Made by a program: the position numbers and the translations under genes. The notes under the pieces were generated by a model. That model made no database searches. It was not told where the DNA came from and was given only the letters and a program-made list of their open reading frames with translations. A stretch of DNA of 22,230 bases from IMG/VR virus record IMGVR_UViG_2713896776_000007, positions 1 to 22,230 of that record. The stretch is one strand, 5' to 3'. The first letter of the stretch is position 1; each line of letters begins with the position of its first letter. Positions 1 to 18,466 of the stretch are shown here, one piece after another. The DNA is from a virus. Lineage: Duplodnaviria; Heunggongvirae; Uroviricota; Caudoviricetes.

Positions 1-270
1 ATGGAAAATCTACTTTTTGTGATGTGTTGGATTAAAGATCATCATGTGATGTCATTAGCTTTTGGCGTCTTATCTGCAATTTTATGGATTAAATCTGCTA
101 CAGCAAAAGTTGAGTTAGGCAAAAAAATTGTCATGGTTACGTATGAAGATCCCGAACTTAACGTGAATCTCCATGATTTCTTCGCCACTGCGCGGCTTCA
201 ATCTAAGTACAATTCATTTGCAGCATTGTCTGCAGCAGCAACCGCGCTATTCCAGATTATTGGTTTGTAA
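1..270 (+). CDS. hypothetical small hydrophobic protein (89 aa); ORF begins at the window edge and may be 5-prime partial
   Basis: Open frame from nt 1 to TAA at 268-270. Two hydrophobic stretches (VMSLAFGVLSAILWI and FAALSAAATALFQIIGL). AT-rich, convergent with the cargo operon. No RBS can be assessed at the window start. Confidence 0.3.
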   Translation: MENLLFVMCWIKDHHVMSLAFGVLSAILWIKSATAKVELGKKIVMVTYEDPELNVNLHDFFATARLQSKYNSFAALSAAATALFQIIGL

Positions 271-407
271 TGCTTACCAGCCCCAAATTAATCAATACCC
301 AGTGGTATTAGCAATGTCCATTTCAAGTACATACGTTCTTAAGACATTTGGGCACTGTCATGTCTGTCGGGGAGGAGGTTAAAATCCTCTCGTGCAAAAT
401 TTCTTAG

Positions 408-770
408 CTAGAGAATACAAAGAACATCATCTGGTGTTAACACAGAGTCTTCTACGTACTCAGGGTGGTTACGTAATACATCTCTCTGATGTCTCAAGAT
501 CTGCGCTGGAATTTCTTGCTCATCCACAATTTTGGCAGTATCCAGCAAAATACTGCCACACCTTATTTCCAGCGAAACAAAGCGATTCCACTCTGGACCA
601 TTAGAACACAAAAGGTCAAACAAAACCTCACCTGTAGCCTGTGAATTGCCCAGTATAACAGAAAGCCTCTTCTCGATTTCGTGAACTGAAGTCAAGGGGT
701 TCTCGTAGCCAGTCGCCATAACGACGGCAATGAGAGCCCCTGAGACGTTAACACCTGTTATTTCAAACAA
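408..770 (-). CDS. rnlB: RnlB/LsoB-like antitoxin candidate (120 aa), second gene of the cargo operon
   Basis: TTG start at 770 preceded by AAGGA about 8 nt upstream. The 8-nt overlap TTGTTTGA contains the TGA stop of the upstream gene, so the two are translationally coupled. Size and position match the RnlA-RnlB arrangement (toxin first, about 120-aa antitoxin second). Assignment rests on architecture only. Confidence 0.45.
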   Translation of the reverse strand: MFEITGVNVSGALIAVVMATGYENPLTSVHEIEKRLSVILGNSQATGEVLFDLLCSNGPEWNRFVSLEIRCGSILLDTAKIVDEQEIPAQILRHQRDVLRNHPEYVEDSVLTPDDVLCIL

Positions 771-1833
771 TATACAAATCCTTAATAATTCCCCATGCCT
801 GTCTGGCCTTAGTCATCAGTCGTGCCATGTCAGAAACCATACGGCTTGTGTCGACAACTATCTCCATATGAAACAGGCCATGACGTTCTCTGTTAAAGAA
901 AGTATAGGCATCATTAATGGTCTTAACCTTAGCTGACGATAAATTGCATCCAAATTGTTGTTTCAGAATAAATTCACTCCCAATTTTATCAAAATAAGGC
1001 CCGAAACCATCCTGCGTGATTGGCATGCCATATCGGTACATTGTTGATTTAAGTACTCCCTCAACTGAACGTAATTCAGGATACAACAACATACAGTAAT
1101 CGGGTAAATCGGGGGCGGCGAGTTTAACACACAGCCCAGAAACGAGCAATTTTTCAACATTCTTATGCAATAGTGGGTACGCATCCCCCATTTCACACTC
1201 TAGATGTGAGCGAGCAACTTCTTTCTGAACTATATACGCTTTGCCATCATCCTGACGAATGAGAACTTTTTCCAGTCCTTGTAAATCGAGTAGCTCTGAC
1301 AAGTTGAATATAAACACTCTATAACATGACAATGGACGCCCTTGTATTTGTAGTGTTCCATTTCTGTGATGCAGACTAACTGTCAACTCATCCTGAAATT
1401 CTGGCGAATGAATTTTCCACACCGTTGTATGAGTGTTCCGTAAGTATTCGTAAAATTGTATATGTGGCTGCTCTGCTGAGAGCTGAAGTACAGATAAAAC
1501 GTTCGCTTCAACGAACCCTTGTAACACCATATTTACCTGTTCAAATTCTGCAGGATTGATGGTTTCATAGAGATCATCAGCCAACTCTTTTCCAAGATTA
1601 TGATTAGCTCCTGTTTGATACTGGACTGTAGACGTCCCTCCGTTATTATAGAAAATGTTAACAGTTGCCAAAGCTTCTCCTGGTTTAGCAAACACAACCC
1701 GAAGTCCTGCTCTTGCACCAGGCATTGGTCCAATTGAATGGACGGAATAGTTTTTATTTTCAATAAATGCCCTAGACGTAGCCTCAATAGTTGTCCGATC
1801 TAAATTTAAATTAGTGTAGTTCCTGACTGTCAT
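763..1833 (-). CDS. rnlA: RnlA/LsoA-like HEPN endoribonuclease toxin candidate (356 aa from ATG at 1833; the ORF stays open up to 1944)
   Basis: C-terminal Rx4-6H HEPN-type motif NRERHGLFH. Counting from the ATG at 1833, R255 and E258 (LRSVEG) and R317/H322 fall at or within one residue of the catalytic positions I recall for E. coli RnlA (R255, E258, R318, H323; 357 aa). Followed by an overlapping gene of about 120 aa. AT-rich. Not verified by alignment. Confidence 0.55.
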   Translation of the reverse strand: MTVRNYTNLNLDRTTIEATSRAFIENKNYSVHSIGPMPGARAGLRVVFAKPGEALATVNIFYNNGGTSTVQYQTGANHNLGKELADDLYETINPAEFEQVNMVLQGFVEANVLSVLQLSAEQPHIQFYEYLRNTHTTVWKIHSPEFQDELTVSLHHRNGTLQIQGRPLSCYRVFIFNLSELLDLQGLEKVLIRQDDGKAYIVQKEVARSHLECEMGDAYPLLHKNVEKLLVSGLCVKLAAPDLPDYCMLLYPELRSVEGVLKSTMYRYGMPITQDGFGPYFDKIGSEFILKQQFGCNLSSAKVKTINDAYTFFNRERHGLFHMEIVVDTSRMVSDMARLMTKARQAWGIIKDLYIV

Positions 1834-1842
1834 TTGCTTAAC

Positions 1843-1871
1843 CCTATAAAAAACTTTAGCAAACTCTACAA
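1843..1871 (-). promoter_or_regulatory. candidate sigma70 promoter for the cargo operon
   Basis: On the minus strand, TTGTAG then 17 nt then TATAGG, ending about 9 nt before the ATG at 1833 (short leader). Hexamers are imperfect. Confidence 0.25.
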
Positions 1872-1892
1872 TATAGCCCCTCTTTAGTCTAA

Positions 1893-2255
1893 TCAGGCGC
1901 TGTATCCTGAAATCGGGTACCGATAATATCCCTCCTGCAGCCATGTGTTGGTGTTAACAAGATACTGTGTATCAATTGAATCCGTCAGATTGCAAAAGTT
2001 GATGCCTCTTTCGCGCAGTTCCTCCACCAGCACGACAAGATGCCGCATACTGCGCCTCAGTCGATCCAGTTTCCAGACCACCAGCGTATCACCTGCCGAT
2101 AATGTCCTGAGCAGTTTTTTCAGTCCCGGCCTTTCGGACTTTGTACCGCTTATCTTGTCTTCAAAAATCAGCTCGCATCCTGCACAGTTCAGCGCATTAC
2201 GTTGTAGATCTGTGTTCTGGTCATTTGTTGACACACGTACATAGCCAATAAGCAT
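1893..2255 (-). pseudogene. pin: Pin/Gin/Hin-family serine DNA invertase, 3-prime truncated (N-terminal catalytic domain only)
   Basis: MLIGYVRVSTNDQNTDLQRNALNCAGCELIFEDKISGTKSERPGLKKLLRTLSAGDTLVVWKLDRLRRSMRHLVVLVEELRERGINFCNLTDSIDT is near-identical in pattern to the Gin/Pin N-terminus, including the catalytic Ser in YVRVSTNDQ. Homology ends after SIDT (about nt 1968); the remaining 24 codons are unrelated and the C-terminal DNA-binding domain is absent. Confidence 0.8.
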
Positions 2256-2281
2256 GGTAGATCTCCCTGACAAAAGCAGGA

Positions 2282-2815
2282 ATGATGCCATTTGCGCGTT
2301 ATTTCTGCATTTTCATAAACGTTGGTTTGGGAGAAGGCTCTGCATTACCGGTTGGGGTGCCTGTTCCGTGGCCTTCAGCCACTCCGCCAACAGGCTGGCT
2401 GAAATGCAATGGTGCGGCTTTTTCTGCTGAAGAATACCCGGAACTGGCAAAGGCTTACCCGACCAATAAATTGCCTGATTTACGCGGTGAATTTATTCGT
2501 GGCTGGGATGACGGACGTGGAGTGGATAACGGAAGGGGATTATTAACGCTTCAGGACGGTGCGATTGTCAGTCATAACCACTATTGGGGAATCTGGACTT
2601 CACGAACTAACGACCAGACTCTGGAAAGTTTTACAGGCACCACGATTTTAAAACAAATCACGCCCCTGTCTCCGGCCATTGACTTCGATAATTACCCAAT
2701 TCCCAACCCGGCTATTACAGAGGGTGGTGTTGTTGCGGCAACGACTAAACCTGCTGGTGCGAATGAAACACGCCCACGAAATGTCGCTTTTAACTATATT
2801 GTGAGGGCTGCATAA
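2282..2815 (+). CDS. alternative (currently silent) tail-fibre C-terminal variable segment, Sv-prime/StfE-like
   Basis: Contains the tail-fibre receptor-binding signature GVPVPWPSATPPTGWLKCNGAAFSAEEYPELAKAYP...LPDLRGEFIRGWDDGRGVD. Lies inside the invertible segment in opposite orientation to the expressed fibre. Real coding likely starts at the crossover site (GLGE codons near 2323). Confidence 0.7.
   Translation: MMPFARYFCIFINVGLGEGSALPVGVPVPWPSATPPTGWLKCNGAAFSAEEYPELAKAYPTNKLPDLRGEFIRGWDDGRGVDNGRGLLTLQDGAIVSHNHYWGIWTSRTNDQTLESFTGTTILKQITPLSPAIDFDNYPIPNPAITEGGVVAATTKPAGANETRPRNVAFNYIVRAA
2310..2335. other. invertase crossover site (hix/gix-like), left end of invertible segment
   Basis: TTTTCATAAACGTTGGTTTGGGAGAA. 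Its right 14 bp (TTGGTTTGGGAGAA) are identical to the inverted partner at 4213..4238. Confidence 0.55.
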
Positions 2816-3417
2816 TGAATAACGCAGAATTAAACAGTGAATTAATTGCCACTATGGCAGGAGAAATTACTGTTTATAACTTTGATGTCATGAGTCGGGA
2901 ATATATTTCAGCTTCAACTGAATATCTTGCTATTGGTGTCGGCATTCCGGCATATTCCTGTTTAGATGCCCCAGGCGCATACAAAGCTGGTTATGCAATC
3001 TGCCGTTCTGCAGATTTTAACTCATGGGAATATGTGCCAGACCATCGCGGTGAAACGGTCTATAGCACCGAAACAGGAGAATCAAAAGAAATCACCGCTC
3101 CGGGTGATTACCCTGAAAATACAACCACTATCGCCCCATTAACGCCATATGATAAATGGGATGGTGAGAAATGGGTGACGGATACCGAGGCACAGCATAG
3201 CGCCGCAGTAGATGCAGCAGAAGCACAGCGCCAGTCGCTGATTGATACTGCAATGGCGTCCATCAGTCTGATTCAACTGAAATTGCGGGCCGGACGTAAA
3301 CTGACGCCGGCAGAAACAACCCGGCTTAACGCTGTGCTGGATTACATTGAGGCGGTGACGGCAACAGATACCAGCACCGCGCCGGATGTCATCTGGCCTG
3401 AACTGCCGGAGGCGTAG
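2815..3417 (+). CDS. tail fibre assembly protein (U-prime/TfaE-like), 200 aa
   Basis: Start overlaps the stop of the preceding fibre segment (ATGA coupling). C-terminal ...DTSTAPDVIWPELPEA is typical of Tfa chaperones. Confidence 0.8.
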   Translation: MNNAELNSELIATMAGEITVYNFDVMSREYISASTEYLAIGVGIPAYSCLDAPGAYKAGYAICRSADFNSWEYVPDHRGETVYSTETGESKEITAPGDYPENTTTIAPLTPYDKWDGEKWVTDTEAQHSAAVDAAEAQRQSLIDTAMASISLIQLKLRAGRKLTPAETTRLNAVLDYIEAVTATDTSTAPDVIWPELPEA

Positions 3418-3841
3418 GCCATTCAATATCTGGTGCACTGGAGGTATCAACCAGCTCCAGTGCATCCAGATAATCCAGCCACAAATTATATTGCGCCAGT
3501 TCCTCACCTTTCAGACGACCAATAGCGGCTTTACCGGGCCATTGCTTACTGTTCATGTATTCGTTGGCCTGGTTAATTAGTAGCTGTCTTTCTGATTCAG
3601 TAATTTCAATAAGCTCTTCATGCGTGGGTGGAGGAATATCTGCCCACGCAGGCAGCCCATCATCTCCGGCAATACGGATTTTTCCTTGTGGCGGTTCAGC
3701 CATAAACTCACTGATAATATTCTGATTTACTTCCTTAGCGTCTGATAAATCCCATCCCTCTGATTTATATTTATCAATCATATCCACAGGAAAAAAAGCA
3801 TTATGCCTTGCGCTATAAACATATTCGTTCATATAAATCAC
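3389..3841 (-). CDS. tail fibre assembly protein (U/TfaP-like), about 147-150 aa
   Basis: MNEYVYSARHNAFFP N-terminus and DTSSAPDIEWPTPP C-terminus are typical of Tfa. The 3-prime end overlaps the convergent Tfa gene. True start may be the internal ATG at 3832. Confidence 0.8.
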   Translation of the reverse strand: MIYMNEYVYSARHNAFFPVDMIDKYKSEGWDLSDAKEVNQNIISEFMAEPPQGKIRIAGDDGLPAWADIPPPTHEELIEITESERQLLINQANEYMNSKQWPGKAAIGRLKGEELAQYNLWLDYLDALELVDTSSAPDIEWPTPPAVQAR

Positions 3842-3852
3842 CCTGAATAAAA

Positions 3853-4515
3853 TTACTCACCAACAGCCCACCAACTGTAATTCATCGATACCGTGTCGCT
3901 GGTTGATGACGTTCTGTAAGCAGAATTAAAACCGGTTAACGTTGGGTCTTCTGCCGTCATCACGAACCCTCGCCCAGCGCCTAAAGGCGCACCGCCATCA
4001 CCAGAATGAGTAAGCATGGCGCAGTCCGCTTTTTTGGGGAAAGGGATGCTGAATGTAATTCTCATTGTTTGCGTCGATAATGTCGGCGTAACCGCACCTC
4101 GACCATATTGCAGGATTTTACCGTTGGGTAATTTCATCCATCCATCACCACTGGCAAAAGAAGCCATGTCCGGTATCTGATTTTCCCCTGTCCCCACATC
4201 CCGTTTTGCCGCTTCTCCCAAACCAAGGTTTTCGAGAGCCGTTTTCACCGTGCCGTCCGATTTGATATCGCCAAACGGATTCTTGCGGCTTAACAGCAGC
4301 GCGCGAAGTGCGGTAAGCAACTGGTCATGCCTCCCCTTCTCCAGGCTGGTACCGGATGCCTCCACCACGCTGCAAAGCTCCTCCTGCAACATGTCAAAGT
4401 AGTCATCATCCAGATCGGTGGCAGGTGTGCCGGTCTGGGGGTTACCACGGGTAAAACCGTTCTTACCCGCGCCGAACTTATCCTTCTGCGCGGTTTTCGT
4501 GTCTATACGATGCAT
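3853..4515 (-). CDS. tail fibre protein (expressed orientation), StfP-like, 220 aa
   Basis: N-terminal [14 protein letters not shown] resembles the conserved fibre N-terminal attachment motif. The crossover site lies within the gene at the GLGE codons. Immediately downstream of the gp48-like gene. Confidence 0.75.
4213..4238. other. invertase crossover site (hix/gix-like), right end of invertible segment, inside the expressed fibre gene
   Basis: Plus strand TTCTCCCAAACCAAGGTTTTCGAGAG closely resembles Hin hixL as I recall it (TTCTTGAAAACCAAGGTTTTTGATAA). Inverted relative to 2310..2335. Confidence 0.55.
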
Positions 4516-4518
4516 GGA

Positions 4519-5103
4519 TTACTCCGGATATTTAAAAATTACGTAGGTATGCGACGGGCAGAGTTTGTTAAGCACACACTCGACTACGGTGTCGCCCCAG
4601 ATACGCAGTGCGGAATCACAGGGATCGCCACATGTCATCCAGGTGGTGTTGGTGGCGGCTGGCATGTTGACCTGCCAGTAATACCGCCATTCCGGCGCAT
4701 TCACCGCGTCAGTACAGGCAGATGAGCAGGTGAACGTGCTTTTGTCGTATCGCGTGATGGTGGCGTCTGGTCTGCCCAGGGCAGCAAGCTGTGCAAGGTA
4801 AAAATCCTCATTGATGCCGCCCGCCAGATTAACCTTCGCATCCAGCCGTTGCTGACGCTGGCGAAGGGTCTGCGTCCCTGCCGGAATACATTCATCCGGC
4901 AGGCCGCACAGACGCTCCCAGCGATTTATCAGTTCGGTGGTGGTGCGCGGATCCAGCTCCCGCATCAGGGCATCCGCACGCTGATGAACACGGGTTAATG
5001 AAGGTGCCGCACCGGCAATCGCCGGATCGCTGGCTGACCACGCCGGACCGGGCGGCAACAGTGCCGATAACAGGCGGATGTAATCATCGTTTGTCACGTC
5101 CAT
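4519..5103 (-). CDS. baseplate/tail protein, YmfQ / Mu gp48-like (DUF2313-type), 194 aa
   Basis: Same length as e14 YmfQ (194 aa) and same position between the baseplate J-like gene and the tail fibre. Confidence 0.65.
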
Positions 5104-6152
5104 GAAATCGTCCCCAGTACCGCCAGTTCGTTTTTCGCAATGGAAATATTGTCTGCCGGTGCAAGCAACTGATGGCTGTATTCCCCGTTCGCACCGGAAA
5201 TCGCCTCACTGATACGCGATACCTTCAGTTCTCCCTGCGGATAACCATCACGCAGCAGGAACGAACGCAACTCCGCGGTAATGGCAGCCCGTATTTCCGG
5301 TGTGTCCGGCGTCACGCGGATATGAAAATCCACCGTATGCGCCACCGGCCTGAACACATACAAATCAGAGCCTGCCACCGGGGCCAGAGGCCCGATATGT
5401 TGTCTTGCCGCCGTTTCCGTTGATTCTTCCGGAATGGGATTAATCAGGTCACTGCTGGCAATCATCACACCGACAGTTCCCGTTCCCATCCAGTGACGGT
5501 ATGTCCATGCGCGGGTAATGCCGGGCACTTCTTTAGCCCAGACGACATAGTCCCCGTCAGCCCCGCCCTGAAGCGTCCAGTAATACCGCTCAATGACGCG
5601 GGCGCGCCACGTTTCCAGATCTTCAGTATCGAATCCGCCAGTCAGGGTATCTGCAACACCGGAAGACGGCAGACCATTCACCGGCGTGACCAGGATTAAT
5701 GCCGTACCGTCGTCAGCGTTACCGACCGCGCCTGCACTTGAGCAAGTGATCGGCACGCGCAGGACACCACCGGAGCTGGTTGCATCAGCAGTTGCCGTGT
5801 ACTGAACCAGGTCAGCGCGCTGAATCACGCTCCCGGCGGTCACCTTCAGGCCATCGCTGACACCTTCCCAGCGCATATACCCGCTGGCAGCCGTGGCCCC
5901 CTTGCGCGGACACCGTTTCATCGCAGCATGTCGCGCCAGCCAGGACTCATCGCACAGGTCAGGCAGCATGTTCATTGCCAGATAATCGATGTAACCGTAA
6001 ACCGTATGCAGCGCCGCCGCATACACCTTTGCCCGCACGTCTTCATCCATGCGCCGGAGCGTGTCGCTGACGTCCAGCCTGGCGAATAAATCGTTACGGA
6101 GCATACTGATATTTTCTGCCAGCGTCGGGCGCTGAAATTCACTGTCCGCCAT
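5094..6152 (-). CDS. baseplate J-like protein (Mu gp47-like), 352 aa
   Basis: Size and position in the baseplate operon; overlaps neighbours by 10-14 nt (translational coupling). Confidence 0.65.
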
Positions 6153-6567
6153 GCGTTATCGCACTCCACAGATCATCAAAAGAAATCATTACCGGTCCGT
6201 CACGACGCCAGAGGGTGATACTGTTACCCAGCTCATTAATCCCGGTGCGGCGGATATCCAGATCAATACGGGACACCACGCCGTCATCAATCATCCATTG
6301 CAGGCATTCGCGGATATACCCCCTTACCGTCTGCACCAGCTGATTGGTCAGTTTGCTGCGCTGAAGCAGCCACAGTCGGGAGCCGTAACGGTCATTCTGT
6401 ACCGCAGGCCAGGTATCCCCCCACCATCCCATCGGGACGTCGGCGTTGTCATCAGGCTCCGCCCGCCGCCAGGTAAACATGGAAATCACCACGGCGCGGG
6501 TCAGCGGATCCAGCGGTGCGCTGGCGCAGGTGCGTTTACCGTTCACCGTCAGCCACAGTTCCATCAT
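6139..6567 (-). CDS. baseplate protein, Mu gp46 / GP46-family (lysozyme-like gp25 type), 142 aa
   Basis: Motifs GWWGD and GSRLWLL are as I recall for the GP46 family. 4-nt overlap with the upstream V-like gene. Confidence 0.6.
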   Translation of the reverse strand: MMELWLTVNGKRTCASAPLDPLTRAVVISMFTWRRAEPDDNADVPMGWWGDTWPAVQNDRYGSRLWLLQRSKLTNQLVQTVRGYIRECLQWMIDDGVVSRIDLDIRRTGINELGNSITLWRRDGPVMISFDDLWSAITHGGQ

Positions 6568-7112
6568 GCCTCCATCGCTTTATCAGGTTTGTCGGTGTTA
6601 CTGCCCTGACCGTTCTCTCTGTGACGATGCCCGTTATAGGCAAGCCGCATCGCTGACATGGTAGTGCCGCCGGAGTCGCACAGGTCTTTCACCTGTCCGG
6701 TCACTTCAAGGTCCATTTCAAAACGTGCTCTGGGCGCATTGCGAAACGTGATCGTTTTACCTGCACCGTCCACCACGATCCCCTCCCGGGTCAGCGTCAC
6801 AGACTGCCCCTGATCGTCATAGACAGCCACCTCACCCGTCTGCAGCCCTTTCAGGCGGTAGCGCCGGTCCGACACCGTAACAACCACCGCATGAGAACGG
6901 TCGCCATCCGGAAACAACACCACCGCTTCCGCACCGCTGTTTGCCCTTGCGGTAAAACCGTAGGGTTCAAGATGTTCAACCCCGGCTTTGGGTTCACCGG
7001 CAATCAGGGACACATCCACGGTCTGACATTTCGTGGCGGCGCTGATACTTTTCACCACTGCCCGCCCAATCAGGCCGAGAAGTTGTCGCTGCATGGCTTC
7101 AATCGTCCTCAT
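6564..7112 (-). CDS. baseplate assembly protein V (Mu gp45-like), 182 aa
   Basis: LEPYGFTA...GAEAVVLFPDGDRSHAVVV...RYRLKGLQTGEVAVYDD matches the gpV family signature. Confidence 0.7.
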   Translation of the reverse strand: MRTIEAMQRQLLGLIGRAVVKSISAATKCQTVDVSLIAGEPKAGVEHLEPYGFTARANSGAEAVVLFPDGDRSHAVVVTVSDRRYRLKGLQTGEVAVYDDQGQSVTLTREGIVVDGAGKTITFRNAPRARFEMDLEVTGQVKDLCDSGGTTMSAMRLAYNGHRHRENGQGSNTDKPDKAMEA

Positions 7113-8191
7113 CAGAACGGGTCCTCCTGTACTCTGGCTTTTTTCTTTTTCTGCGCGCCGGGGGCATCGGGTTCAGGCAGATAAGCATCAGGCGGGCCGA
7201 CACGGATTTCCGTCAGGGTGCCGTTCTGGTCCTGAGTAAACGTGACTTCCGAAACAAGCAGTTCGGTATTGTCAAAACCACAGACCGGATCAAAGACAAT
7301 CACCCGCTGGTTGGGCTGCCACAGCGTACCGTTACCCTGTCGCCAGCCCTGCACCACATAGGTGGTTTCATCCGTCCGCGCCGCCCGTTGCCGGGCTTCA
7401 AAGTCAGCACGCGCAATACAGCCAGCCCCCGTGGCCTGCCCTGTCTGCCTGATATACATCGGACGGTAACGGGCAATAAATGCGTCCTCTGTGCGGGCCC
7501 GCAGCGCGGTGGTGGTGGCCTCACCGAAATCATCGTCGTTTCCGGCACGCTGCCCCGCCACCTGGTAAACTGAAAACCGCTCCCGGATACTCTTCTCCGT
7601 ATCGCAGGAAAGGATGTTTTCCCCAAGTACCAGCGCGGTATGTGCCCGCGTTGAGCCAATACCGCCAATCACCAGCCTGCCGTGCGGATCGTCGTAAGCC
7701 AGTGCCTGCTGCTGACCGAGTATTTTGTTGATTACCTCAATCACCGTTTCACCGTGATCAGGCTGAACATCAGGAATAACACCCGACGGCGCACCGCTGT
7801 TCACCACCTCAATGCCGAAAGGCGCAGCAAGCGCCTGCGCAATCTGCACCAGCGAGCGTCCGTTAAACTGTGTCGGTTCGGCTGCACAGTCAATCAGGTC
7901 AGCCGTCAGACTACGTCCGGCAATACCGGTGCTGACCGAACGGGCATCGTAACGAACGGGCGTCGCCTCCACCCAGCCGGTGATCACCAGCTCATCACCA
8001 ATCAGCACCTCCACTTTTGAACCGTTTTTAATGCGCGGCTGAAGCGTGGTGATACCCTCATCACCCGGCCACTGGCGGGTGATCTCCACACTGAAATCCC
8101 GCGCCAGCCGTTCAATACCGGCACCGATGCGCACCGATGTCCAGCCATTCCACTCCCGGCCATTTACCCGTAGCGTGACATTGTCGTTCAT
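7112..8191 (-). CDS. tail/baseplate hub protein (Mu P / gp44-like), 359 aa
   Basis: Position between the DNA-circulation-like gene and the V-like gene; overlapping start and stop with both neighbours. Confidence 0.55.
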   Translation of the reverse strand: MNDNVTLRVNGREWNGWTSVRIGAGIERLARDFSVEITRQWPGDEGITTLQPRIKNGSKVEVLIGDELVITGWVEATPVRYDARSVSTGIAGRSLTADLIDCAAEPTQFNGRSLVQIAQALAAPFGIEVVNSGAPSGVIPDVQPDHGETVIEVINKILGQQQALAYDDPHGRLVIGGIGSTRAHTALVLGENILSCDTEKSIRERFSVYQVAGQRAGNDDDFGEATTTALRARTEDAFIARYRPMYIRQTGQATGAGCIARADFEARQRAARTDETTYVVQGWRQGNGTLWQPNQRVIVFDPVCGFDNTELLVSEVTFTQDQNGTLTEIRVGPPDAYLPEPDAPGAQKKKKARVQEDPF

Positions 8192-9564
8192 TGCACTGGC
8201 ACCTTCAGAGGGATCACCGGCACAAAGCCGGGATGCGTAATGGCATTACGCCGGATAATGTCCGCGTCACGCGCCGCGTTATCAAACCAGGTCGCCGCCA
8301 GCACCAGCGCGGGTAAAACCTCATCCGGTGTGCGCTGAATGATCCGAGCAGACTGTTCAAGGCGCGTGTTGATATCCGCATTCAGATCTGCTTTCACCCG
8401 GCGCAGCGCCAGAAACAGCGCATCACTGGTTGTACGGGACAACTCCTTATCAATTGCCGTATTCAGTGTGTCGCGAATGTCGGTCAGTTCTTCCCACGTT
8501 GGCAGGTCAACCGTGTTTTTCACCGCCGGTGCATTGTTCAGTGCCGGATGCGTGACGGAAGGCCAGCCGGAGCTCTGCGCGGGTGTTGTTGACTGCCCCA
8601 CTGCGGCATTCTGCATCACCGCAGAAGTTGTTGGCGCAGGCAATCGGGTGACGGCATACGCCGCTTCGCTGATTGCGGTCGTACGAAGGATGCTGGCAAC
8701 CACGTTACGCTGCTGCGTCGCCGTGGCGGTGGTTTTACTGTCCGTTTTCCAGACGCCGCGCGGTTGCAGATCGCTGCCGAGGCTGACACCGGAAAGCGTT
8801 TTGATCATGGTGACCAGGTCGCTGGCGTTACCATAAAGGCGTTTCCCGGTACGCCACATTTTCTGCACCTGCTCAACGAAATTTTTTCCTGACGATGGCG
8901 GCGGCAGAAGTACCGAGATATCCCCCTGCAACAGCCTGGCAGCATCCGATACGGCAGAATCCACCACTTTCATCGCATCAGAAACATACCCCAGCATTGT
9001 GCTGGCATTACCGACGACGTCGTTCTGCACAAAATCCGCCACGCCATCGATACTGAAACCACTGAAACTGTCACTGATGCAGTCATCCAGTGCAGAACAG
9101 GATGACATCAGCGTCTGCGCCGTCGCCGCACCTGATGTGGGGTAAGAGAGTTCTCCCGCTTCGACAAACTTCAGGTCAAAGCGGACAATACGCCCTTCAC
9201 TTTTCGATGTGCTGACCCGAACTTCCCCGTCAACACAGACTTTCAGCTCACCGTATGTCGGATGGACAAGCGTGCCGGGACCGGGTTTATTCAGCGCATC
9301 AATCAGGCGATCGCGCTGGTCAAAGCAGTCATCTCCCACCACATAAGCCGTGATGGACGGGCGGAAAGTAACTTTTCCCAGATCTTCGGTATAGGGCTTG
9401 TCGCGGTTCGGGTATTCGTGTGTTTCCACACGGCGACCGGTTCCCGCACTTTCTTCTTCAACCTTAAACGATACGCCGCGAAATGACGCGTCCTGAAGTC
9501 TGTCACGCCAGCCTGAAGACGACGAAAGTAATGAAGGTCGGGTGGGAAATGAGGATAAATCCAT
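8188..9564 (-). CDS. tail protein of the Mu N / DNA circulation family (gp43-like), 458 aa
   Basis: N-terminal WRDRLQDASFRGVSFKVEEE...GRRVETHEYPNRDKPYTEDLG is characteristic of the DNA-circulation N-terminal domain. Directly downstream of the tape measure. Confidence 0.7.
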   Translation of the reverse strand: MDLSSFPTRPSLLSSSSGWRDRLQDASFRGVSFKVEEESAGTGRRVETHEYPNRDKPYTEDLGKVTFRPSITAYVVGDDCFDQRDRLIDALNKPGPGTLVHPTYGELKVCVDGEVRVSTSKSEGRIVRFDLKFVEAGELSYPTSGAATAQTLMSSCSALDDCISDSFSGFSIDGVADFVQNDVVGNASTMLGYVSDAMKVVDSAVSDAARLLQGDISVLLPPPSSGKNFVEQVQKMWRTGKRLYGNASDLVTMIKTLSGVSLGSDLQPRGVWKTDSKTTATATQQRNVVASILRTTAISEAAYAVTRLPAPTTSAVMQNAAVGQSTTPAQSSGWPSVTHPALNNAPAVKNTVDLPTWEELTDIRDTLNTAIDKELSRTTSDALFLALRRVKADLNADINTRLEQSARIIQRTPDEVLPALVLAATWFDNAARDADIIRRNAITHPGFVPVIPLKVPVQ

Positions 9565-9588
9565 AGACTGACCTCAAAAAGGACTGCG

Positions 9589-11496
9589 TTATCGTGGAAA
9601 ACGAAAAGGGGAATACCCCACATCGTGCGTGATTTTCATCAGGGGATCGGCTTTGTCCGGTACATCAATTATCTTCATACCTGGCGGAGCATTCTCGAAC
9701 GTGACTTTCAGCTCGCTGTGCTGTGTCATGGAAGAAGATGGATTCAACAGCGGAACATTGGGTTTGTACTGACTCAGGCTGGCCTGATATTGCTCGTACT
9801 CTTTACGATCAAAAAAAGGCGTCCAGTCTGAAGCCAGAAACAGCCCTTTATTATCCAGCCAGTTAACCGTATCTTCAGGAACAACACTTTCCAGAGTATC
9901 TTTAACCGGCTCATACATCAGGGTTCCCAGAAAACCATATACCCCGGCCTTCCCGATAAAGCCGCGGCCTTTCCCCATCAATCCCGTTTCTGCCGATACC
10001 TTCCCCAGCGTACGCATCTCTCTGGTCACTGCGGTAATGGATTTGGTAACGTCAGCAACCCATTTGGTTGCCATAAACAGGGCAATCGCTTTCAGAACAG
10101 TTTCCCATCCCCCCATCGCCTGCGCCGTTTCATCCATCACGTGCCAGACTTTTTTTATGACAGGACCTACGGTTTCCCAGTTATCAATAATGAGGTAAGC
10201 GCCACCAACCAGAAGAGCAATCAGCCCCTTAGCAGGCGTCATATTCATCACACCGCCGAGAACTTTCATAATTCTGGACAAAGAGCCTGCAGCGGCTCCC
10301 ACCGTCAGTAAGGCCAGACCGATTTTAGCAATGGTCTTAACGAGCTCCGGGTTTTCACGGACAAACGTTCTCACTTCCTCAAGGAGCGGTTTTACCGCTT
10401 CAAGACCATCATTAACCTCAGGAAGAAACGTTTCCCCCAGCGTGGAAGAAATGGCATCAAGTTGATTTTGCAGAAGTAAAAGCTGGTTTTCCGTCGTCGC
10501 TGCCCTCGAAGCATATTCCTTCTGCATCGAACTGCCATACTGCTGGGAATCCGCAACCCGCCTGAAGTTGGTACGCAACAAATCAAGGTTAGTCAGCAGA
10601 GGTGCTATCGCGCCCAGAGACTCTTTCCCGAACAGGGCATTCAGCACAGCTGCCCGTTTTTCTTTAGGCACTTTAGCCATCGCATCCAGTACAGATAGCA
10701 TGGTGCCCCGGGCATCTTTCTGCATATCAGCAGCTAATTTCTTCGGATTGATCCGCAGAAAACGCAATGCCTGTTTCTGCGATTTTGTCGCAGAATTTCC
10801 CGCGGTCAGGGAAAGCATGAAGTTCTTGATCCCTGTGGCGGCAATTTCTGACTCCACGCCCATCCCGGCAATGGTTGCCCCCATTGCCGCGATTTCGCCG
10901 GAAGCCACACCTGCAACACCACCTAAAGGACCAATACGCGTAACAATATCGGAGATTTTCTTCGCGTTCGCCGGGCCGGTATTACCAAGGTAGTTGATTT
11001 TGTCAGCCAGCCCGGCCACTTCATCCTGCGTCATATTAAACGCAGTACGCCACTGGGCCATCATCTGCCCGGACTCTTCAGCCGTGGTATCAAAGGCCAC
11101 GCCCATCTTCACCGCATCAGTGGCAAACTGCATCAGTTCATCACGTGCAATCCCGGCCTGACCACCCGCCGCCACGATTTCAGCGATACCTTCCGCCGAC
11201 ATAGGCAGTTCGGTTGACAGGTCACGCACCTGCTCCGTCATGGCCTTAAACGCATCCGGCGTATCCAGACCGTCCACCACTTTGCGGACATCAGCCATCT
11301 TCGATTCAAGGGTGATGGCTGATTTTACAGGGAGTACCAGTGCCCCCATTATTGCAGTACCCGCCCCGGCAGCGCCCAGAGCAAGGCTGGAGACTTCTTT
11401 CTGAAATCCCTTAAGCTGACGCTGCATACCTTTAAGCGGGCCGGATAGCCTGTCAACGGCGGTGATGATGGCTTTCAGCTGAAAATTATCAGCCAT
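9589..11496 (-). CDS. tail tape measure protein (canonical position, Mu gp42-like), 635 aa
   Basis: Helical, Ala/Gly-rich with the tape-measure core (IAEIVAAGGQAGIARDELMQFATDAVKMGVAFD...INYLGNTGP) and a hydrophobic GGAYLIIDNW segment. Lies between the chaperone-like gene and the N-like gene. Confidence 0.8.
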   Translation of the reverse strand: MADNFQLKAIITAVDRLSGPLKGMQRQLKGFQKEVSSLALGAAGAGTAIMGALVLPVKSAITLESKMADVRKVVDGLDTPDAFKAMTEQVRDLSTELPMSAEGIAEIVAAGGQAGIARDELMQFATDAVKMGVAFDTTAEESGQMMAQWRTAFNMTQDEVAGLADKINYLGNTGPANAKKISDIVTRIGPLGGVAGVASGEIAAMGATIAGMGVESEIAATGIKNFMLSLTAGNSATKSQKQALRFLRINPKKLAADMQKDARGTMLSVLDAMAKVPKEKRAAVLNALFGKESLGAIAPLLTNLDLLRTNFRRVADSQQYGSSMQKEYASRAATTENQLLLLQNQLDAISSTLGETFLPEVNDGLEAVKPLLEEVRTFVRENPELVKTIAKIGLALLTVGAAAGSLSRIMKVLGGVMNMTPAKGLIALLVGGAYLIIDNWETVGPVIKKVWHVMDETAQAMGGWETVLKAIALFMATKWVADVTKSITAVTREMRTLGKVSAETGLMGKGRGFIGKAGVYGFLGTLMYEPVKDTLESVVPEDTVNWLDNKGLFLASDWTPFFDRKEYEQYQASLSQYKPNVPLLNPSSSMTQHSELKVTFENAPPGMKIIDVPDKADPLMKITHDVGYSPFRFPR

Positions 11497-11580
11497 GCTT
11501 CATCTCCTCATTTATACGGACGGCCTCTGCCTCCAGATCAGCAAAGTGGGAAATAGCCGTCCGGCGAAGTTCAAGGGGGT

Positions 11581-11904
11581 TTAATTTCCAGAACCACGCG
11601 ACATTGTAGAATCGCTTCCGGAGGTCTCTTCCGTCTCCAAGCCGGTAAAAAAACGCATTACAATCATGCCTGCCTTGAAAATATCCAGCTTCGTCATCTG
11701 CGCTGCAGACGAGCGCGGGATCCCGGCCAGAAGCGGGATATATTTCAGCGCCACCTGACTGTCCATTTTCATACCACCATCAGGCGAAACAGAGAAAGGG
11801 AACCCCAGCGCCTCAATCTCGTCATACGTAGGCTCACGTATTTCCAGCACATGCAGTGTTTCTTTGTGGGCGATGATCGGTTTTTTAAGTACAAGCTCAA
11901 TCAC
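11581..11904 (-). CDS. tail assembly chaperone candidate (Mu gp41-like), 107 aa
   Basis: Small acidic protein between tube and tape measure. No frameshift extension of 60 aa or more is visible in the ORF track. Confidence 0.45.
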   Translation of the reverse strand: MIELVLKKPIIAHKETLHVLEIREPTYDEIEALGFPFSVSPDGGMKMDSQVALKYIPLLAGIPRSSAAQMTKLDIFKAGMIVMRFFTGLETEETSGSDSTMSRGSGN

Positions 11905-12257
11905 TGGTAATCCCCTTCTTCACCGTGGAACTCAAGATCGACCGTGCCTTCTTCGGCATTATGGTTCGCTTCGCCGTGCAGCCAGGCAGACGACAGTACA
12001 TAGACCTGACCGTTCGCCAGCTCGGCAGTGATGGTCATCTCATCAGACGAGGTGATTTTGCTCACCGGAAAATTCTTCGGCACCTTGAAGGTCCCTTTGA
12101 CATAAGGCGCACGGTGAGTTTCCTTGCGGTCCACTGAACCGTCCAGGCCGATGATGTCATCATTGACCGTCCTGTTCATGGGCACCTCAATGCCGCCGGT
12201 CAGCGATAGCTGCTGACCGTCAATTTTGAAATAACAGGTTCCCCCGATACGGGCCAT
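11901..12257 (-). CDS. tail tube protein (Mu M-like), 118 aa
   Basis: Directly follows the sheath gene with overlapping start and stop; size typical of a Mu-type tube. Confidence 0.65.
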   Translation of the reverse strand: MARIGGTCYFKIDGQQLSLTGGIEVPMNRTVNDDIIGLDGSVDRKETHRAPYVKGTFKVPKNFPVSKITSSDEMTITAELANGQVYVLSSAWLHGEANHNAEEGTVDLEFHGEEGDYQ

Positions 12258-13753
12258 TATGCGGACTCCTCTGAATACTGAAGACGGAACTGGTTAACCA
12301 CGGCAAAGACACGCAACTGGTTAACATAGTCAGGCGGGAACAGCGTGTTCAGGCGGTTCGGATCGCTGGCATCACGCTCCACAACTAGGTACTGCTTAAA
12401 CAGTGCGTAGTTTTCCACGATCCCCGCACGCTCAAGCTGACGGTAGGTTGCCAGCAGTTCCCCTTTGATCACCGCCGGGGTGACAATCGCCTGACCGGGA
12501 CCAAAGCGGGTACCGTCACTGGCAAGCTTGTGACGCCCGTACTTACTGGTAATGACGGATTTCAGTTTGCGCAGTACATACGCGCTGGTATGCAGGGTCT
12601 CACTGTCTAGGTAGCTGTTATCCGCAACCCCGTAAGCGTTTTTCCTGTACGTGGTGACATCACGCTGAATGCGCAGTACCCCGCTTTCGACATACGCCGT
12701 TGCCACGCCATGAGACAGCAGGGTCTGTTGTTCGGTCATCGTGAACCGTTTCCCCTTCGGCGCAGGCAGCATACCCACCAGCTCACCGGTCTGCGTGGGA
12801 CGTGCCGGATCGTTGCGAATAAACACCGCTGCGCGGGCGGTACGGCTTGCCGCCAGTTCGTCGGCAGGCGTCTGGGTCTCTTTTTCGTACCCCGCCAGGG
12901 TAATGTGCTGCTGGTTAAACTGGTCACCTGCGGTCACCAGTTCTGACAGCGTGCCGATCTTTGCCGTATACACATGACCATACAGCTGACGCGCATAGCT
13001 CCAGCGACCGCTGGTATCGTTCATCTCGGTCACCAGCGTGTTAACGGAGGCCGTGTCGTTGAACGGCAGGCCGATATAATCAAACGGCTCATCCGCCATT
13101 GCAGCCACCGCGCCGGTGAGAACCGGAGCACCCGTTCCGGCGGTACCCGTCGCCACGGCAATCTGTACGCCCGCTGGCAGCACTTCGCCCCCACCAAAGC
13201 CGTAGTAATTGAGGCTGACAGGAATTTCATTCCCGCAAAGCCCCTTATGACGCGCGGTCAGTGTGACCACGCCTGCCGAAGATGAAGCCGTAAACGGCAG
13301 GGCCGGAACGGCATTGATGGCATCTTTGATACTGCTGGCAATCGTCGTGACGTTATCGCCGTTGGTCACCGGAGCCTGCACGCGGGTACGTCCCACATAG
13401 ACATTCACCGTGCCGGTTTCGGTTGCCGCCCCGGTCACCGTCAGCGTAACCGTTGCCGCCGCGCCTGTGGATTCAGGAACGGCAATCACATACAGCTCAC
13501 CAAACGGGTCGGTCTGGCGATAAGCCTCGACCATACGCGCCAGCTGACTTCCCGCACCACAAATCTGGCGTGCATAGTCTGCCGACGGCATCAGTACCAG
13601 ACTGTTGGCAACAATCTCTGCACCGTTATTGGCATGACCAATCAGCAGCGATGCTCCGCTGTCCTGTGCAGTATTCGCCGCCGAGTTATCCATTTCCGCA
13701 TAAAACAACGGAACCAGCGTATTCGACGGAATGGTGTTAAAGCTTATCGTCAT
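12257..13753 (-). CDS. contractile tail sheath protein (Mu L-like), 498 aa
   Basis: Size and position, followed by tube, chaperone and tape measure. Confidence 0.75.
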   Translation of the reverse strand: MTISFNTIPSNTLVPLFYAEMDNSAANTAQDSGASLLIGHANNGAEIVANSLVLMPSADYARQICGAGSQLARMVEAYRQTDPFGELYVIAVPESTGAAATVTLTVTGAATETGTVNVYVGRTRVQAPVTNGDNVTTIASSIKDAINAVPALPFTASSSAGVVTLTARHKGLCGNEIPVSLNYYGFGGGEVLPAGVQIAVATGTAGTGAPVLTGAVAAMADEPFDYIGLPFNDTASVNTLVTEMNDTSGRWSYARQLYGHVYTAKIGTLSELVTAGDQFNQQHITLAGYEKETQTPADELAASRTARAAVFIRNDPARPTQTGELVGMLPAPKGKRFTMTEQQTLLSHGVATAYVESGVLRIQRDVTTYRKNAYGVADNSYLDSETLHTSAYVLRKLKSVITSKYGRHKLASDGTRFGPGQAIVTPAVIKGELLATYRQLERAGIVENYALFKQYLVVERDASDPNRLNTLFPPDYVNQLRVFAVVNQFRLQYSEESA

Positions 13754-13915
13754 CGGTATTCACCTTTTTATTCACGCGCCGGATATCACCCGCTGCTTCA
13801 CGGCGCAGCCAGTAGTTGTTCTCGTCAACATTTCGCCCTTCGGCGGGCAAAAGGTCGCCGCGGGCAGGGTCAGGAACTGACCGCCCTTTAACAGGTTTCA
13901 CAAACATGAAGATTC

Positions 13916-14476
13916 TCAGGAAGGAAGGGTTATTTCGGTGTGATGTTCGATATCGCCGTCAGGCCCGTTACCGGGATCGAGATAATCAACATCAATCGCC
14001 AGCGTTCGCAGTTCATCCAGACTGTTCAGGTCATCCTGCTGGCGGGTATCGTCTTCAGTCAGCTCGCTGATGACCGAAAAATCGAACTGATAAATCAGCT
14101 CATGACGATTCAGATCCAGCAGCGTGCCGCCGTCATAGGTAATCGGGTTACCGCACGCCTCCGGGTTCCAGCCCAGCAGAGCCTTAAAGAGCATCTGCCG
14201 GACATCGTCCACCACATCATACGAGGCAAACTGACCGCGCTCATCACGCCCGTTACTCAGTATGACAACCACGGAGAAACCCTCTTTCAGCTCCTGCCAG
14301 TAGTCGGTCTGGCTTTTGTTTTCTCCCGGAGAATCATCACCCGGTACAACATATGCCGCCGGGAGTTTCAGCTTTCCGACCTCCGGCAGATTTTTGAACT
14401 GGGCCGCGCCTGCAACCCGGTTTTCAAAATACGGACAGCGGGCACGCAGTGCAGCAATAACAGGCGTCAGTTTCAT
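13916..14476 (-). CDS. tail completion / neck protein candidate (Mu gp37-like), 186 aa
   Basis: Position immediately upstream of the sheath gene; acidic C-terminus. Assignment is positional. Confidence 0.4.
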   Translation of the reverse strand: MKLTPVIAALRARCPYFENRVAGAAQFKNLPEVGKLKLPAAYVVPGDDSPGENKSQTDYWQELKEGFSVVVILSNGRDERGQFASYDVVDDVRQMLFKALLGWNPEACGNPITYDGGTLLDLNRHELIYQFDFSVISELTEDDTRQQDDLNSLDELRTLAIDVDYLDPGNGPDGDIEHHTEITLPS

Positions 14477-14704
14477 CTGTGTCGTCGCTCCGGCTTCAGT
14501 GATTTACGCAATTCCCGCGCCAGAAAATAGCGTGTCCAGCTGCGGTTCTTTTCAAGAGTTTCCACCATGAAGTTATTACGTGGAGCCAGTCGCCAGCCGC
14601 TGCCACCGGATGCACCTGATCCACCGCGCGATAAATAAGCCGCAATCCGTGAGATAAATGGACACGGTGCGGCTTTTCAGATACTGCAAAGGAATTACAA
14701 ATTA

Positions 14705-17182: not shown

Positions 17183-17214
17183 GGTTCACTCCGGTAATGA
17201 GTGGTTCGGTGGCG

Positions 17215-17808
17215 TCATTCGGTCAGGGACAGGCCGCTGATTCCGGTAATCCCGGCAATTTCCTCGCTGACAGCCATCAGTTCACTTTCAAGCCCGGTAC
17301 GTTCGCTGACCAGCGCCGCAACGGTCTTACGGCGTTCTGCCAGTGACGGAAGTTTGTCATTGCCCCACACCACGCTTTTATCCTTCTTAAGCGCTTCGGT
17401 CAGGCGGGTGGCGACCACATCCGGGAAGAAAAAGCAGAGCTTGCGCATAACCGCCATCCCGGTATCAGCCGGGGAGATGTTTCCACCCAACCCCACCAGA
17501 CGGAACAGGCCGGAAATATCGCCGCTCTCATTCTCCAGATTGCCCCAGCGTTCGGCGTTCCCTTCACTGCCGGAACTGTTGCAGAGGACACGCTTGAATG
17601 ACTGATATTCTTCCTGCCCGAATCGCTCAATATATTCAGGAATGAAAGAACAGTAATCATTAAGCGATAAAGGCATATCCTGTAATGTGGTTATTTCGCC
17701 GTTAATTTCACTAATGCGGCGAGAGAGTTTTTCTTTCTGCTCATTCAGGGAGGCAAGATTATTTTTAACGGCGTTCAGTGCTTCGATAAGGGAAATAACT
17801 GGTTTCAT
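17215..17808 (-). CDS. hypothetical phage protein with N-terminal coiled coil, 197 aa (scaffold or chaperone-like?)
   Basis: ORF in operon orientation, start adjacent to the stop of the upstream gene. No recognisable motif. Confidence 0.45.
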   Translation of the reverse strand: MKPVISLIEALNAVKNNLASLNEQKEKLSRRISEINGEITTLQDMPLSLNDYCSFIPEYIERFGQEEYQSFKRVLCNSSGSEGNAERWGNLENESGDISGLFRLVGLGGNISPADTGMAVMRKLCFFFPDVVATRLTEALKKDKSVVWGNDKLPSLAERRKTVAALVSERTGLESELMAVSEEIAGITGISGLSLTE

Positions 17809-17809
17809 T

Positions 17810-18424: not shown

Positions 18425-18466
18425 TTACCTGTTCTCGGTTGTGATGTGTAAACAGTGCTTTGCTGC

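Follow-up and report, generated by a model that had tools for sequence, protein, structure and literature searches.

A P-segment-type invertible tail-fibre locus with intact crossover sites beside a truncated invertase gene

The stretch of DNA analyzed here, referred to as the window, is 22,230 nucleotides long and comes from a virus of the Caudoviricetes (IMG/VR record IMGVR_UViG_2713896776_000007, positions 1 to 22,230). The window carries an SfV/e14-like prophage whose contractile-tail module is of Mu type, and an invertible-type tail-fibre segment is found at its end. At 14616 a transposable element within a tail-completion gene interrupts this prophage. Between two inverted 26-bp sites stand two fibre tips and two chaperone genes. 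The segment is flanked on one side by a truncated pin gene and an rnlAB toxin-antitoxin pair, and on the other by the ymfQ gene. The features are listed in the table.

Table. Features of the invertible segment and its flanks, in window coordinates
Feature	Position	Strand	Details
rnlB	408-770	-	Pfam RnlB domain
rnlA	763-1833 (mechanical ORF to 1944)	-	Pfam RnlA domain
Truncated pin, codons 1-96 of 184	1968..2255	-	Pfam Resolvase N-terminal domain alone
StfE-like silent cassette, 177 aa	2282..2815	+	18 N-terminal residues to GLGE, then 159-aa collar-type tip; pin-proximal
Pin-proximal 26-bp site	2310..2335		TTTTCATAAACGTTGGTTTGGGAGAA; outer half TTTTCATAAACG, core TT 2322-2323, inner half GGTTTGGGAGAA
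Invertible segment, 1905 bp core to core	2322..4226		homologous to e14 P segment
TfaE-like chaperone of the collar tip, 200 aa	2815..3417	+	Pfam Caudo_TAP, E = 2.6e-32; 88% identical to K-12 TfaE
TfaP-like chaperone of the gp53-like tip	3389..3841	-	likely ATG at 3832, giving 147 aa; Pfam Caudo_TAP, E = 2e-31
Currently assembled tail fibre, 220 aa	3853..4515	-	constant part residues 1-101; gp53-like tip residues 102-220
Fibre-proximal 26-bp site	4213..4238		TTCTCCCAAACCAAGGTTTTCGAGAG; inner half TTCTCCCAAACC, core AA 4225-4226, outer half GGTTTTCGAGAG
YmfQ / Mu gp48-like baseplate wedge	4519..5103	-	directly upstream of fibre; Pfam Phage_Mu_Gp48, E = 9.4e-27; ymfQ in relatives' annotation

The silent cassette matched the Pfam family Collar (PF07484, E = 8.7e-16), a PHROG tail collar fiber protein (E = 2e-82) and the tip of T4 gp37 (2xgf, E = 1.8e-17), and was 60% identical to K-12 StfE. 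The assembled fibre matched Pfam Gp53-like_C (E = 3.1e-12) and a PHROG tail fiber (E = 3e-91) and was 56% identical to K-12 StfP. Its constant part is coded at 4213-4515, with residues 1-96 outside the segment and the L-G-L-G-E codons on the shared inner half-site; the gp53-like tip is inside the segment. The fibre start lies 4 bp past the ymfQ stop, which places the fibre in the ymfQ operon. The TfaP-like protein was 96% identical to the Tfa of E. coli SFE8 and 54% identical to K-12 TfaP. The two tfa genes are convergent and overlap by 29 bp, as they do in K-12 e14.

Inverted 26-bp sites were read directly from the sequence at the positions given in the earlier note. The inner halves and the 2-bp core are the same at both sites and form the identical 14-bp half, TTGGTTTGGGAGAA, that it had described. 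When the two sites were aligned as inverted repeats, 21/26 positions matched. Two copies of the 14-mer are present in the window, one per strand, and no more appear even with 2 mismatches allowed; by shuffling, 0.21 matches were expected and 0/100 shuffles reached two. The consensus TTN5AAACCN2GGTTTN5AA, searched with at most one mismatch, matched the window at 2310-2335 and 4213-4238 only, each site being one mismatch from it (0.02 expected by shuffling, with 0/100 shuffles giving two). Each site agrees with its K-12 e14 counterpart at 26/26 positions (6606-6631 of the K-12 locus L007 for the pin-proximal site and 4779-4804 for the fibre-proximal site), and the fibre-proximal site is identical to Mu gix at 18/26 positions. 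A misfit to hix/gix, which had been proposed as the observation that could overturn the assignment, was looked for: the sites fit the consensus and equal the e14 sites, for which inversion is experimentally established. The cores TT and AA are reverse complements and are compatible for religation after a 180-degree rotation.

No further crossover site was found in the window at one mismatch or fewer, the other candidates all having 4 mismatches. A multiple-inversion system, either of the shufflon type (tyrosine recombinase Rci) or like Min of p15B, was rejected because the window holds just two sites.

The shared half encodes G-L-G-E in both frames, that is, in the 220-aa fibre on the minus strand and as FINVGLGEGSALP in ORF 2282-2815 on the plus strand. 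Inversion of 2322-4226 in silico gave an uninterrupted 260-aa fibre with no stop codon, which bears out the in-frame exchange of tips proposed in the earlier note. The GWLKCNGAAF...GRGVD tip that had been recognized in the silent alternative is collar-type (PF07484) and is carried by this 260-aa fibre. The same in silico inversion also yielded a 137-aa pin-proximal ORF made up of the leader and the gp53-like tip. The window and the K-12 reference have the same orientation: the gp53-like tip is the one joined to the constant part, and the collar tip stands beside pin. Both sites and all four cassette reading frames are intact.

Judged by its sequence, the stretch at 2310-4238 is homologous to the P segment of the cryptic prophage e14 of E. 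coli K-12. The e14 P segment and its invertase PinE are arranged stfP-tfaP-tfaE-stfE-pinE (Plasterk and van de Putte, 1985; Mehta et al., 2004; both as cited in PMC4272514). The window shares with e14 both sites at 26/26 positions, this gene order, the 29-bp tfa overlap, 88% identity in TfaE, and a fibre constant part, ymfQ and jayE at 96.8% DNA identity. It differs from e14 in having an invertase that ends with residue 96 and bears the substitutions G67R, R88C and S89N, tips that have diverged to 56-60% amino-acid identity, and a segment of 1905 bp as against 1797 bp. The downstream cargo is rnlAB in the window and mcrA in e14, and the complete Mu-type tail module kept in the window prophage has been lost from e14.

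SfV-like temperate phages and prophages (for example Escherichia phage SKA5, OR670062, and the prophages of E. coli PapRG-04-4 and CH458/CH423) were 97-98.6% identical to the window over 1963-14616, and the invertible segment and its sites are common to all of them. The invertase is full-length in SKA5, CH458 and CH423, and the CH458/CH423 pair displays the two orientations. In these relatives pinE is intact (184-187 aa), whereas in the window pin is truncated and the prophage is interrupted at 14616.

The G segment of Mu with its invertase Gin has the same layout, in which the constant part Sc lies outside, Sv-U and U'-Sv' lie inside, the sites fall within fibre coding sequence and the invertase is adjacent; the Mu order S-U-U'-S'-gin matches the window locus. 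The Mu sites fit the same consensus (17-18/26 identical), and Pin residues 1-96 align with Gin gap-free at 70% DNA identity. Mu differs in a segment of ∼3 kb and an intact Gin, and no similarity between the fibre and chaperone proteins of the window and their Mu counterparts was found by blastp. The C segment of P1 with Cin is the same kind of system as the Mu G segment with Gin. By description, the Salmonella H segment with Hin is alike in recombinase family and in the architecture of its 26-bp sites, and it has a Fis-bound enhancer ∼100 bp away from one of them (PMC3798978). Hin flips a promoter and not coding cassettes. No observation contradicted the identification of the locus as an e14-type invertible segment. 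The element type is already known and, apart from the truncation of the invertase, this is an ordinary copy of the e14/Mu-type fibre switch.

The invertase is truncated, as had been noticed earlier. Only the Pfam Resolvase N-terminal domain was detected, and the alignment to PinE/Gin ends after DSIDT. By tblastn the window pin matched PinE residues 1-96 at 96.9% identity, and residues 97-184 gave no match anywhere in the 22-kb window. The mechanical ORF at 1893-2291 consists of the pin fragment with an upstream ATG and 24 unrelated C-terminal residues. Relative to the PinE/Gin alignment the fragment has three substitutions: G67R, which falls in the DRLGR motif, R88C and S89N. The product lacks helix E (the oligomerisation helix) and the C-terminal helix-turn-helix DNA-binding domain. 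With both of these lost, and with G67R in addition, the segment cannot flip itself. As the adjoining invertase is reduced to residues 1-96 and the window holds no PinE 97-184, the locus is a decayed member of the Din (Gin/Cin/Pin/Hin) invertible segments, with the cis elements present and the enzyme lost.

The 5′ 288 bp of pin are intact. In the Hin/Gin family the Fis-bound enhancer lies inside the invertase gene, ∼100-170 bp from the site (PMC3798978), and the pin region matching that position is kept in the window. A crude motif scan of the pin 5′ region, run on the window, K-12 and Mu, did not single out a convincing pair of Fis sites.

The rnlAB pair (408..1944) occupies the place of the 3′ half of pin. 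The module of rnlAB and truncated pin was 99% identical to E. coli 5CRE51 and Ecol_732, and the same truncated-pin allele is borne by the loci L004 (5CRE51) and L005. Identity of 99% to 5CRE51 up to 2335, the last base of the left site, suggested that two prophages had recombined site-specifically at the crossover site. This was rejected by a per-position SNP table, in which the sequence from 1963 to ∼2061-2087 follows the truncated-pin lineage and that from ∼2088-2115 to 2335 follows the intact-pin, SfV-like lineage. Similarity to 5CRE51 ends at 2335 because the cassettes beyond it are unrelated. The switch of lineage inside pin argues that the joint is an ordinary homologous crossover, placed at about 2062-2114, through which the truncated allele and the rnlAB genes downstream of it would have arrived. 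Such a crossover would have replaced codons 97-184 with the truncated allele linked to rnlAB. A 49-mer spanning the rnlA/pin junction had no exact match among species-representative genomes.

The opposite orientation, which the earlier note had recommended looking for in related genomes, was found. In E. coli SFE8 the stretch is inverted with breakpoints at 2317-2336 and 4212-4231, and the SFE8 annotation includes a fibre fusion of this kind. The sister hospital isolates CH458 and CH423 differ solely by a clean inversion between identical sites, both flanks being 100% identical. A set of 5,426 complete E. coli genomes was surveyed, testing the 2.9-kb locus for collinearity; 59 genomes had it in the native form and 67 in the inverted form. 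At the fibre junction, the inverted type was present in 513 genomes and the native type in 74. Both orientations occur naturally at identical sites in relatives. None of the complete E. coli genomes had the truncated-pin allele next to this segment, whichever way the segment was oriented.

Taken as a whole, the locus is very probably an e14-P-type tail-fibre switch of the Gin/Cin/Pin/Hin family with sites and ORFs intact, the cis invertase dead through a crossover inside pin, and the gp53-like tip expressed. Bound to both 26-bp sites, a serine invertase would cleave the 2-bp cores (TT/AA), and the strand rotation that follows would replace one tip and its chaperone by the other pair, in frame at the G-L-G-E codons. 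That the segment is now frozen unless an invertase helps in trans is supported by the loss of the cis enzyme, and this copy is probably not inverting at present. An enzyme provided in trans could still invert it, as the two sites, the four reading frames and the 5′ 288 bp of pin have all been preserved. Intact sites and four intact ORFs would also be expected if the segment is still used or if the truncation is very recent.

The strongest alternative, although an unlikely one, is that the segment is still an active switch, flipped in trans by a Pin-family invertase elsewhere in the genome (PinQ/PinR of Qin/Rac-like prophages, or a second PinE). Inversion of e14 P has been detected in MG1655 cultures (PMC4272514). 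PinE, PinQ and PinR all invert the e14 P segment, which has repeats TTGGTTTGGGAGAAGG, and PinQ and PinR do so in trans (Kirigo et al., 2025, PMC12529663). The identity of the window sites to these functional sites and the four intact cassette ORFs are consistent with continued switching, as is retention of the pin region at the position of the family enhancer, ∼100 bp from the site (PMC3798978). Over 2115-2335 the window differs at one position (2296) from L001, a locus with intact pinE, and at four (2232, 2235, 2264, 2296) from the flipping locus of CH458/CH423. Where an E. coli genome matches the locus at all, the median number of matching places is two. Against continued switching, a K-12 pinE mutant with PinQ at its native level is reported to be locked in the non-inverted state (PMC12529663), the 22-kb window contains no second invertase, and the other carriers of the truncated pin have decayed, the right site of L004 having 4 mismatches and L005 having lost both site and segment. 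Decay or deletion of the kind present in L004 and L005 is the expected outcome after switching stops.

With the prophage interrupted at 14616, the host-range role of the segment may be moot, and virion production is doubtful for the same reason. This interruption gives some weight to the improbable reading that the locus is kept by the host as a defence island, in which inversion would give a 137-aa StfE2-like protein that blocks adsorption of other phages, beside the RnlAB antiphage pair. In K-12, StfE2 is generated by inversion and blocks T2 adsorption (PMC12529663); the 137-aa ORF obtained by in silico inversion is its equivalent, and in all the relatives examined the cargo next to the segment was defensive (rnlAB, mcrA, Avs2, DUF262 or GIY-YIG). 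The gp53-like tip is, however, only ∼56% identical to the K-12 tip, so StfE2 activity is not transferable by homology. The orientation in the window makes no StfE2-like protein, the segment's own invertase is lost and the locus gave no sign of expression or selection. The tail module is whole and intact, which fits recent decay rather than domestication. A combined reading, in which the segment is retained as the host's trans-controlled switch, worked by a PinQ/PinR-type enzyme of another prophage and producing, when inverted, a 137-aa StfE2-like chimera that stops unrelated phages from adsorbing, so as to form a small defence island with RnlAB at the end of a crippled prophage, is similarly remote.

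The weakest alternative, that the inverted repeat is a chance or coding-driven likeness between two fibres that both encode GLGE and not a recombination site, has in its favour that the repeat sits within coding sequence, and nothing more; its probability is negligible, being refuted by two consensus matches against the 0.02 expected from shuffles, by the identity of the sites to experimentally inverting ones and by inversion breakpoints that fall exactly within the sites in relatives.

The preferred reading, an e14-P-type switch with a dead cis invertase, bears on how such loci are annotated. The two partial fibre ORFs and the opposed pair of tfa genes are to be read as the two states of a known switch, not as pseudogene debris, and the "recombinase, partial" beside the segment accounts for the probably static condition of this copy. 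The locus further shows how switches of this type would die, namely by a crossover in the conserved pin that imports a truncated allele together with new defence cargo, here rnlAB. A PinQ/PinR-type enzyme in the source strain, if there is one, would make the locus a natural test of how far trans invertases keep orphan segments alive, a question that bears on the recent claim of e14 inversion as an antiphage defence.

Gene features of the segment and tail module were assigned by Pfam and PHROG scans (table below). Each of the two fibre tips has its own chaperone behind it, and the fibre constant part lies outside the invertible segment (2322-4226), in the same operon as the baseplate genes. Upstream of YmfQ the minus strand encodes, as far as 14476, the full complement of Mu-type baseplate, tape-measure, tube and sheath genes.

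Coordinates of features at the pin-proximal end of the window
Feature	Position	Strand	Assigned by
Pin-distal cargo, rnlAB	1-1962
89-aa ORF	1-270	+
rnlB	408-770	-	Pfam/PHROG
rnlA	763-1944	-	Pfam/PHROG
Truncated pin, Resolvase N-terminal domain only	1893-2291	-	Pfam/PHROG
ORF with Phage Tail Collar domain	2282-2815	+	Pfam/PHROG
Left crossover site	2310-2335
First Caudo_TAP chaperone	2815-3417	+	Pfam/PHROG
Second Caudo_TAP chaperone, converging on the first with a 29-bp overlap	3389-3841	-	Pfam/PHROG
220-aa fibre, Gp53-like C-terminal domain, right site at residues 94-102	3853-4515	-	Pfam/PHROG
Right crossover site	4213-4238
Mu gp48/YmfQ	4519-5103	-	Pfam/PHROG

The left, pin-proximal site reads TTTTCATAAACGTTGGTTTGGGAGAA and the right, fibre-proximal site TTCTCCCAAACCAAGGTTTTCGAGAG. 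In inverted alignment 21 of the 26 bases match, and over the 12-bp inner half and the 2-bp core the two are identical (14 bp, TTGGTTTGGGAGAA). Exactly two copies of this 14-mer were found in the 22-kb window, one per strand, even at ≤2 mismatches; shuffles gave 0.21 expected matches, and 0/100 reached two. The window was scanned with the family consensus TTN5AAACCN2GGTTTN5AA, a perfect fit for Mu gix, and matched only at the two sites, with one mismatch each (0.02 expected from shuffles). Both sites are identical to the two K-12 e14 sites (26/26) and 17-18/26 identical to the phage Mu gix sites. The published inversion repeat of the e14 P segment, TTGGTTTGGGAGAAGG (Kirigo et al., 2025, PMC12529663), is found at window 2322-2337. 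Site identity, consensus fit and this repeat identify the element as homologous to the e14 P segment. The inverted sites with an identical 14-bp half described in the earlier note were thus recovered, and the ORF table and translations confirmed that the shared half encodes G-L-G-E in both fibre frames. An exact fibre-proximal site was also located on a 5.8-kb contig (L016 155-180) of a genome assembled from a metagenome and labelled Bacillota; Escherichia and Shigella account for all remaining exact matches, so the contig is probably mis-binned enterobacterial DNA.

An inverted molecule was generated in silico by joining 1-2321, the reverse complement of 2322-4226, and 4227 to the end. The fibre gene starting at 4515 (-) was open throughout, with no stop, and encoded 260 aa, the last 159 residues being the GWLKCNGAAF...GRGVD cassette; the pin-proximal ORF became 137 aa with the gp53-like tip. 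The proposals that inversion swaps the fibre C-terminus in frame and that the silent alternative carries the GWLKCNGAAF...GRGVD tip were both borne out by the 260-aa product.

The opposite orientation was sought in related genomes and found. Among 5,426 complete E. coli genomes, with junctions counted at ≥80% coverage, the inverted-form junction (fibre constant part and collar tip) was present in 513 and the native junction, as in the window, in 74. Over the whole 2.9-kb locus, 59 genomes were collinear with the native form and 67 with the in-silico inverted form. E. coli SFE8 has flanks oriented as in the window and a reversed interior, with switch points at 2317-2336 and 4212-4231. The sister hospital isolates CH458 and CH423, both with intact pinE, are 100% identical in both flanks and differ by a clean 1.9-kb inversion between sites identical to the window's. 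Both e14 orientations coexist in sequenced MG1655 cultures (PMC4272514).

Many E. coli genomes have prophages with 97-98.6% identity to window 1963-14616, and the tail modules of Shigella phages SfI, SfII, SfIV and SfV and Escherichia phage SKA5 are similarly close. Annotated relatives share the order YmfQ, fibre, Tfa, TfaE, phage tail protein, pinE, and the K-12 cryptic prophage e14 has the same arrangement (ymfQ, stfP, tfaP, tfaE, stfE, pinE, mcrA). In the serotype-converting phage SfIV (L020 2071-3902) a second tail-fibre assembly gene is kept in opposite orientation, with an IS element directly abutting; it looks like a remnant of the same segment with the invertase side lost.

The window Pin was aligned with Mu Gin, K-12 PinE and the Pin of a relative; it is collinear with them from M1 to T96 (...LTDSIDT), after which 24 unrelated residues follow. 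PinE residues 1-96 matched at 96.9% identity by tblastn, and residues 97-184 had no match anywhere in the window, in agreement with the truncation reported in the earlier note. Helix E and the helix-turn-helix DNA-binding domain, needed in serine recombinases for tetramer formation and site binding, are absent, and the remnant carries the substitutions G67R (conserved DRLGR motif), R88C and S89N. The local invertase is certainly non-functional. The same allele (break, substitutions and downstream rnlA-rnlB-orf89) was present in 70 complete E. coli genomes, counted by the rnlA/truncated-pin junction; dozens of genomes already list it as a partial recombinase in their annotation. Other, independent pin truncations were observed in SFE8 (L002 3154-3276), where only 123 bp remain beside the DUF262 gene and the segment has the reverse of the window's orientation, and in Ecol_732 (L005 6319-6515), where the fragment is cut at both ends. 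Invertase loss beside such segments is recurrent.

With the local enzyme non-functional and no second invertase found in the window, the segment appears rather likely to be static in this strain. In K-12, a strain with mutated pinE is reported to stay in the non-inverted form when PinQ is at its native level (PMC12529663). Two other carriers of the truncated allele point the same way: the right site is degenerate in E. coli 5CRE51 (L004), and site and segment are both gone in Ecol_732. The proposal that the switch is frozen unless an invertase acts in trans was therefore supported, if indirectly. These observations equally weigh against continued flipping in trans, which is considered unlikely; in its favour, both sites are perfect, all four segment ORFs are open, and the 5' part of pin, where by analogy the Hin/Gin enhancer would lie, is retained. 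The Fis-bound enhancer of Hin and Gin is part of the invertase gene and ~100 bp away from the site (PMC3798978); in the retained pin region a simple Fis-motif scan showed no convincing pair of sites. The e14 segment is inverted in trans by PinQ and PinR, which other cryptic prophages encode (PMC12529663).

Per-position SNPs showed that from 1963 to ~2061 the window carries private SNPs of the truncated allele and from ~2115 to 2335 those of SfV-like intact-pinE loci, with one difference from L001, one such locus. These two lineages within pin indicate that the truncated end and rnlAB cargo arrived by homologous crossover inside the gene, which suggests that the conserved pin gene is a homology anchor for swapping defence cargo. 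The module orf89-rnlB-rnlA-truncated pin (window 1-2087) is ~99.7% identical to that of 5CRE51 and Ecol_732 (L004 and L005 4352-6440). In both of these genomes, the two that were examined, it belongs to a lambdoid prophage, at whose tail-fibre end it follows ssrA (tmRNA) at a distance of ~300 bp; given this placement, the window may start just downstream of ssrA. The 89-aa ORF corresponds to conserved hypothetical protein WP_000429347.1, between ssrA and rnlB in relatives, and had no match in a Pfam scan. Beyond pin lies rnlAB in the window and another defence-type gene in each relative looked at (loci L001, L002, L003, L007, L021): mcrA in K-12 e14, Avs2 in WS0115A, a DUF262 protein in SFE8 and a LEM-3-like GIY-YIG protein in PapRG-04-4, CH458 and CH423.

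The window stops resembling SfV-like prophages at 14616, by which point ~48 codons of the gene behind the tail terminator are present. The rest of the window, 14617-22230, is the left part of a ~7.75-kb element and matches the copy in E. coli AW1.7 (L006 18004 to ~25747) at 100% identity; the window ends before the element does. The AW1.7 copy is inserted in the major capsid gene of a lambdoid, Qin-like prophage and is flanked by a 5-6-bp target duplication, AAGACA. The element has TG...CA ends, its terminal repeats are imperfect and contain TTATCTCA(C/T)G motifs, and it encodes an 825-aa tape-measure protein, a Mor activator, a DUF3102 protein, a HicB-like antitoxin and N-terminal fragments of a head maturation protease and a Gp27-like small terminase. 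No transposase was evident among its genes and no phage record matched at megablast level; the element resembles a satellite, or a Mu-like transposable prophage that has suffered deletions, and seems to be mobilised still. With the gene after the tail terminator interrupted by this element, the prophage has probably become defective, and there may be no virion left that uses the switch. The locked host range proposed in the earlier note was a supported reading, but may be moot in a prophage interrupted at 14616. The e14 StfE2 chimera formed by inversion blocks T2 adsorption (PMC12529663). A similar block by the inverted form here is conceivable but unsupported; the tip is only ~56% identical to K-12's, and the window orientation makes no chimera.

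The interpretation as an invertible tail-fibre segment is supported, with these caveats on its frozen state and host range. The locus is an example of a classical system, of a kind and mechanism already known; its only particular feature is the truncated invertase, a recurrent allele.
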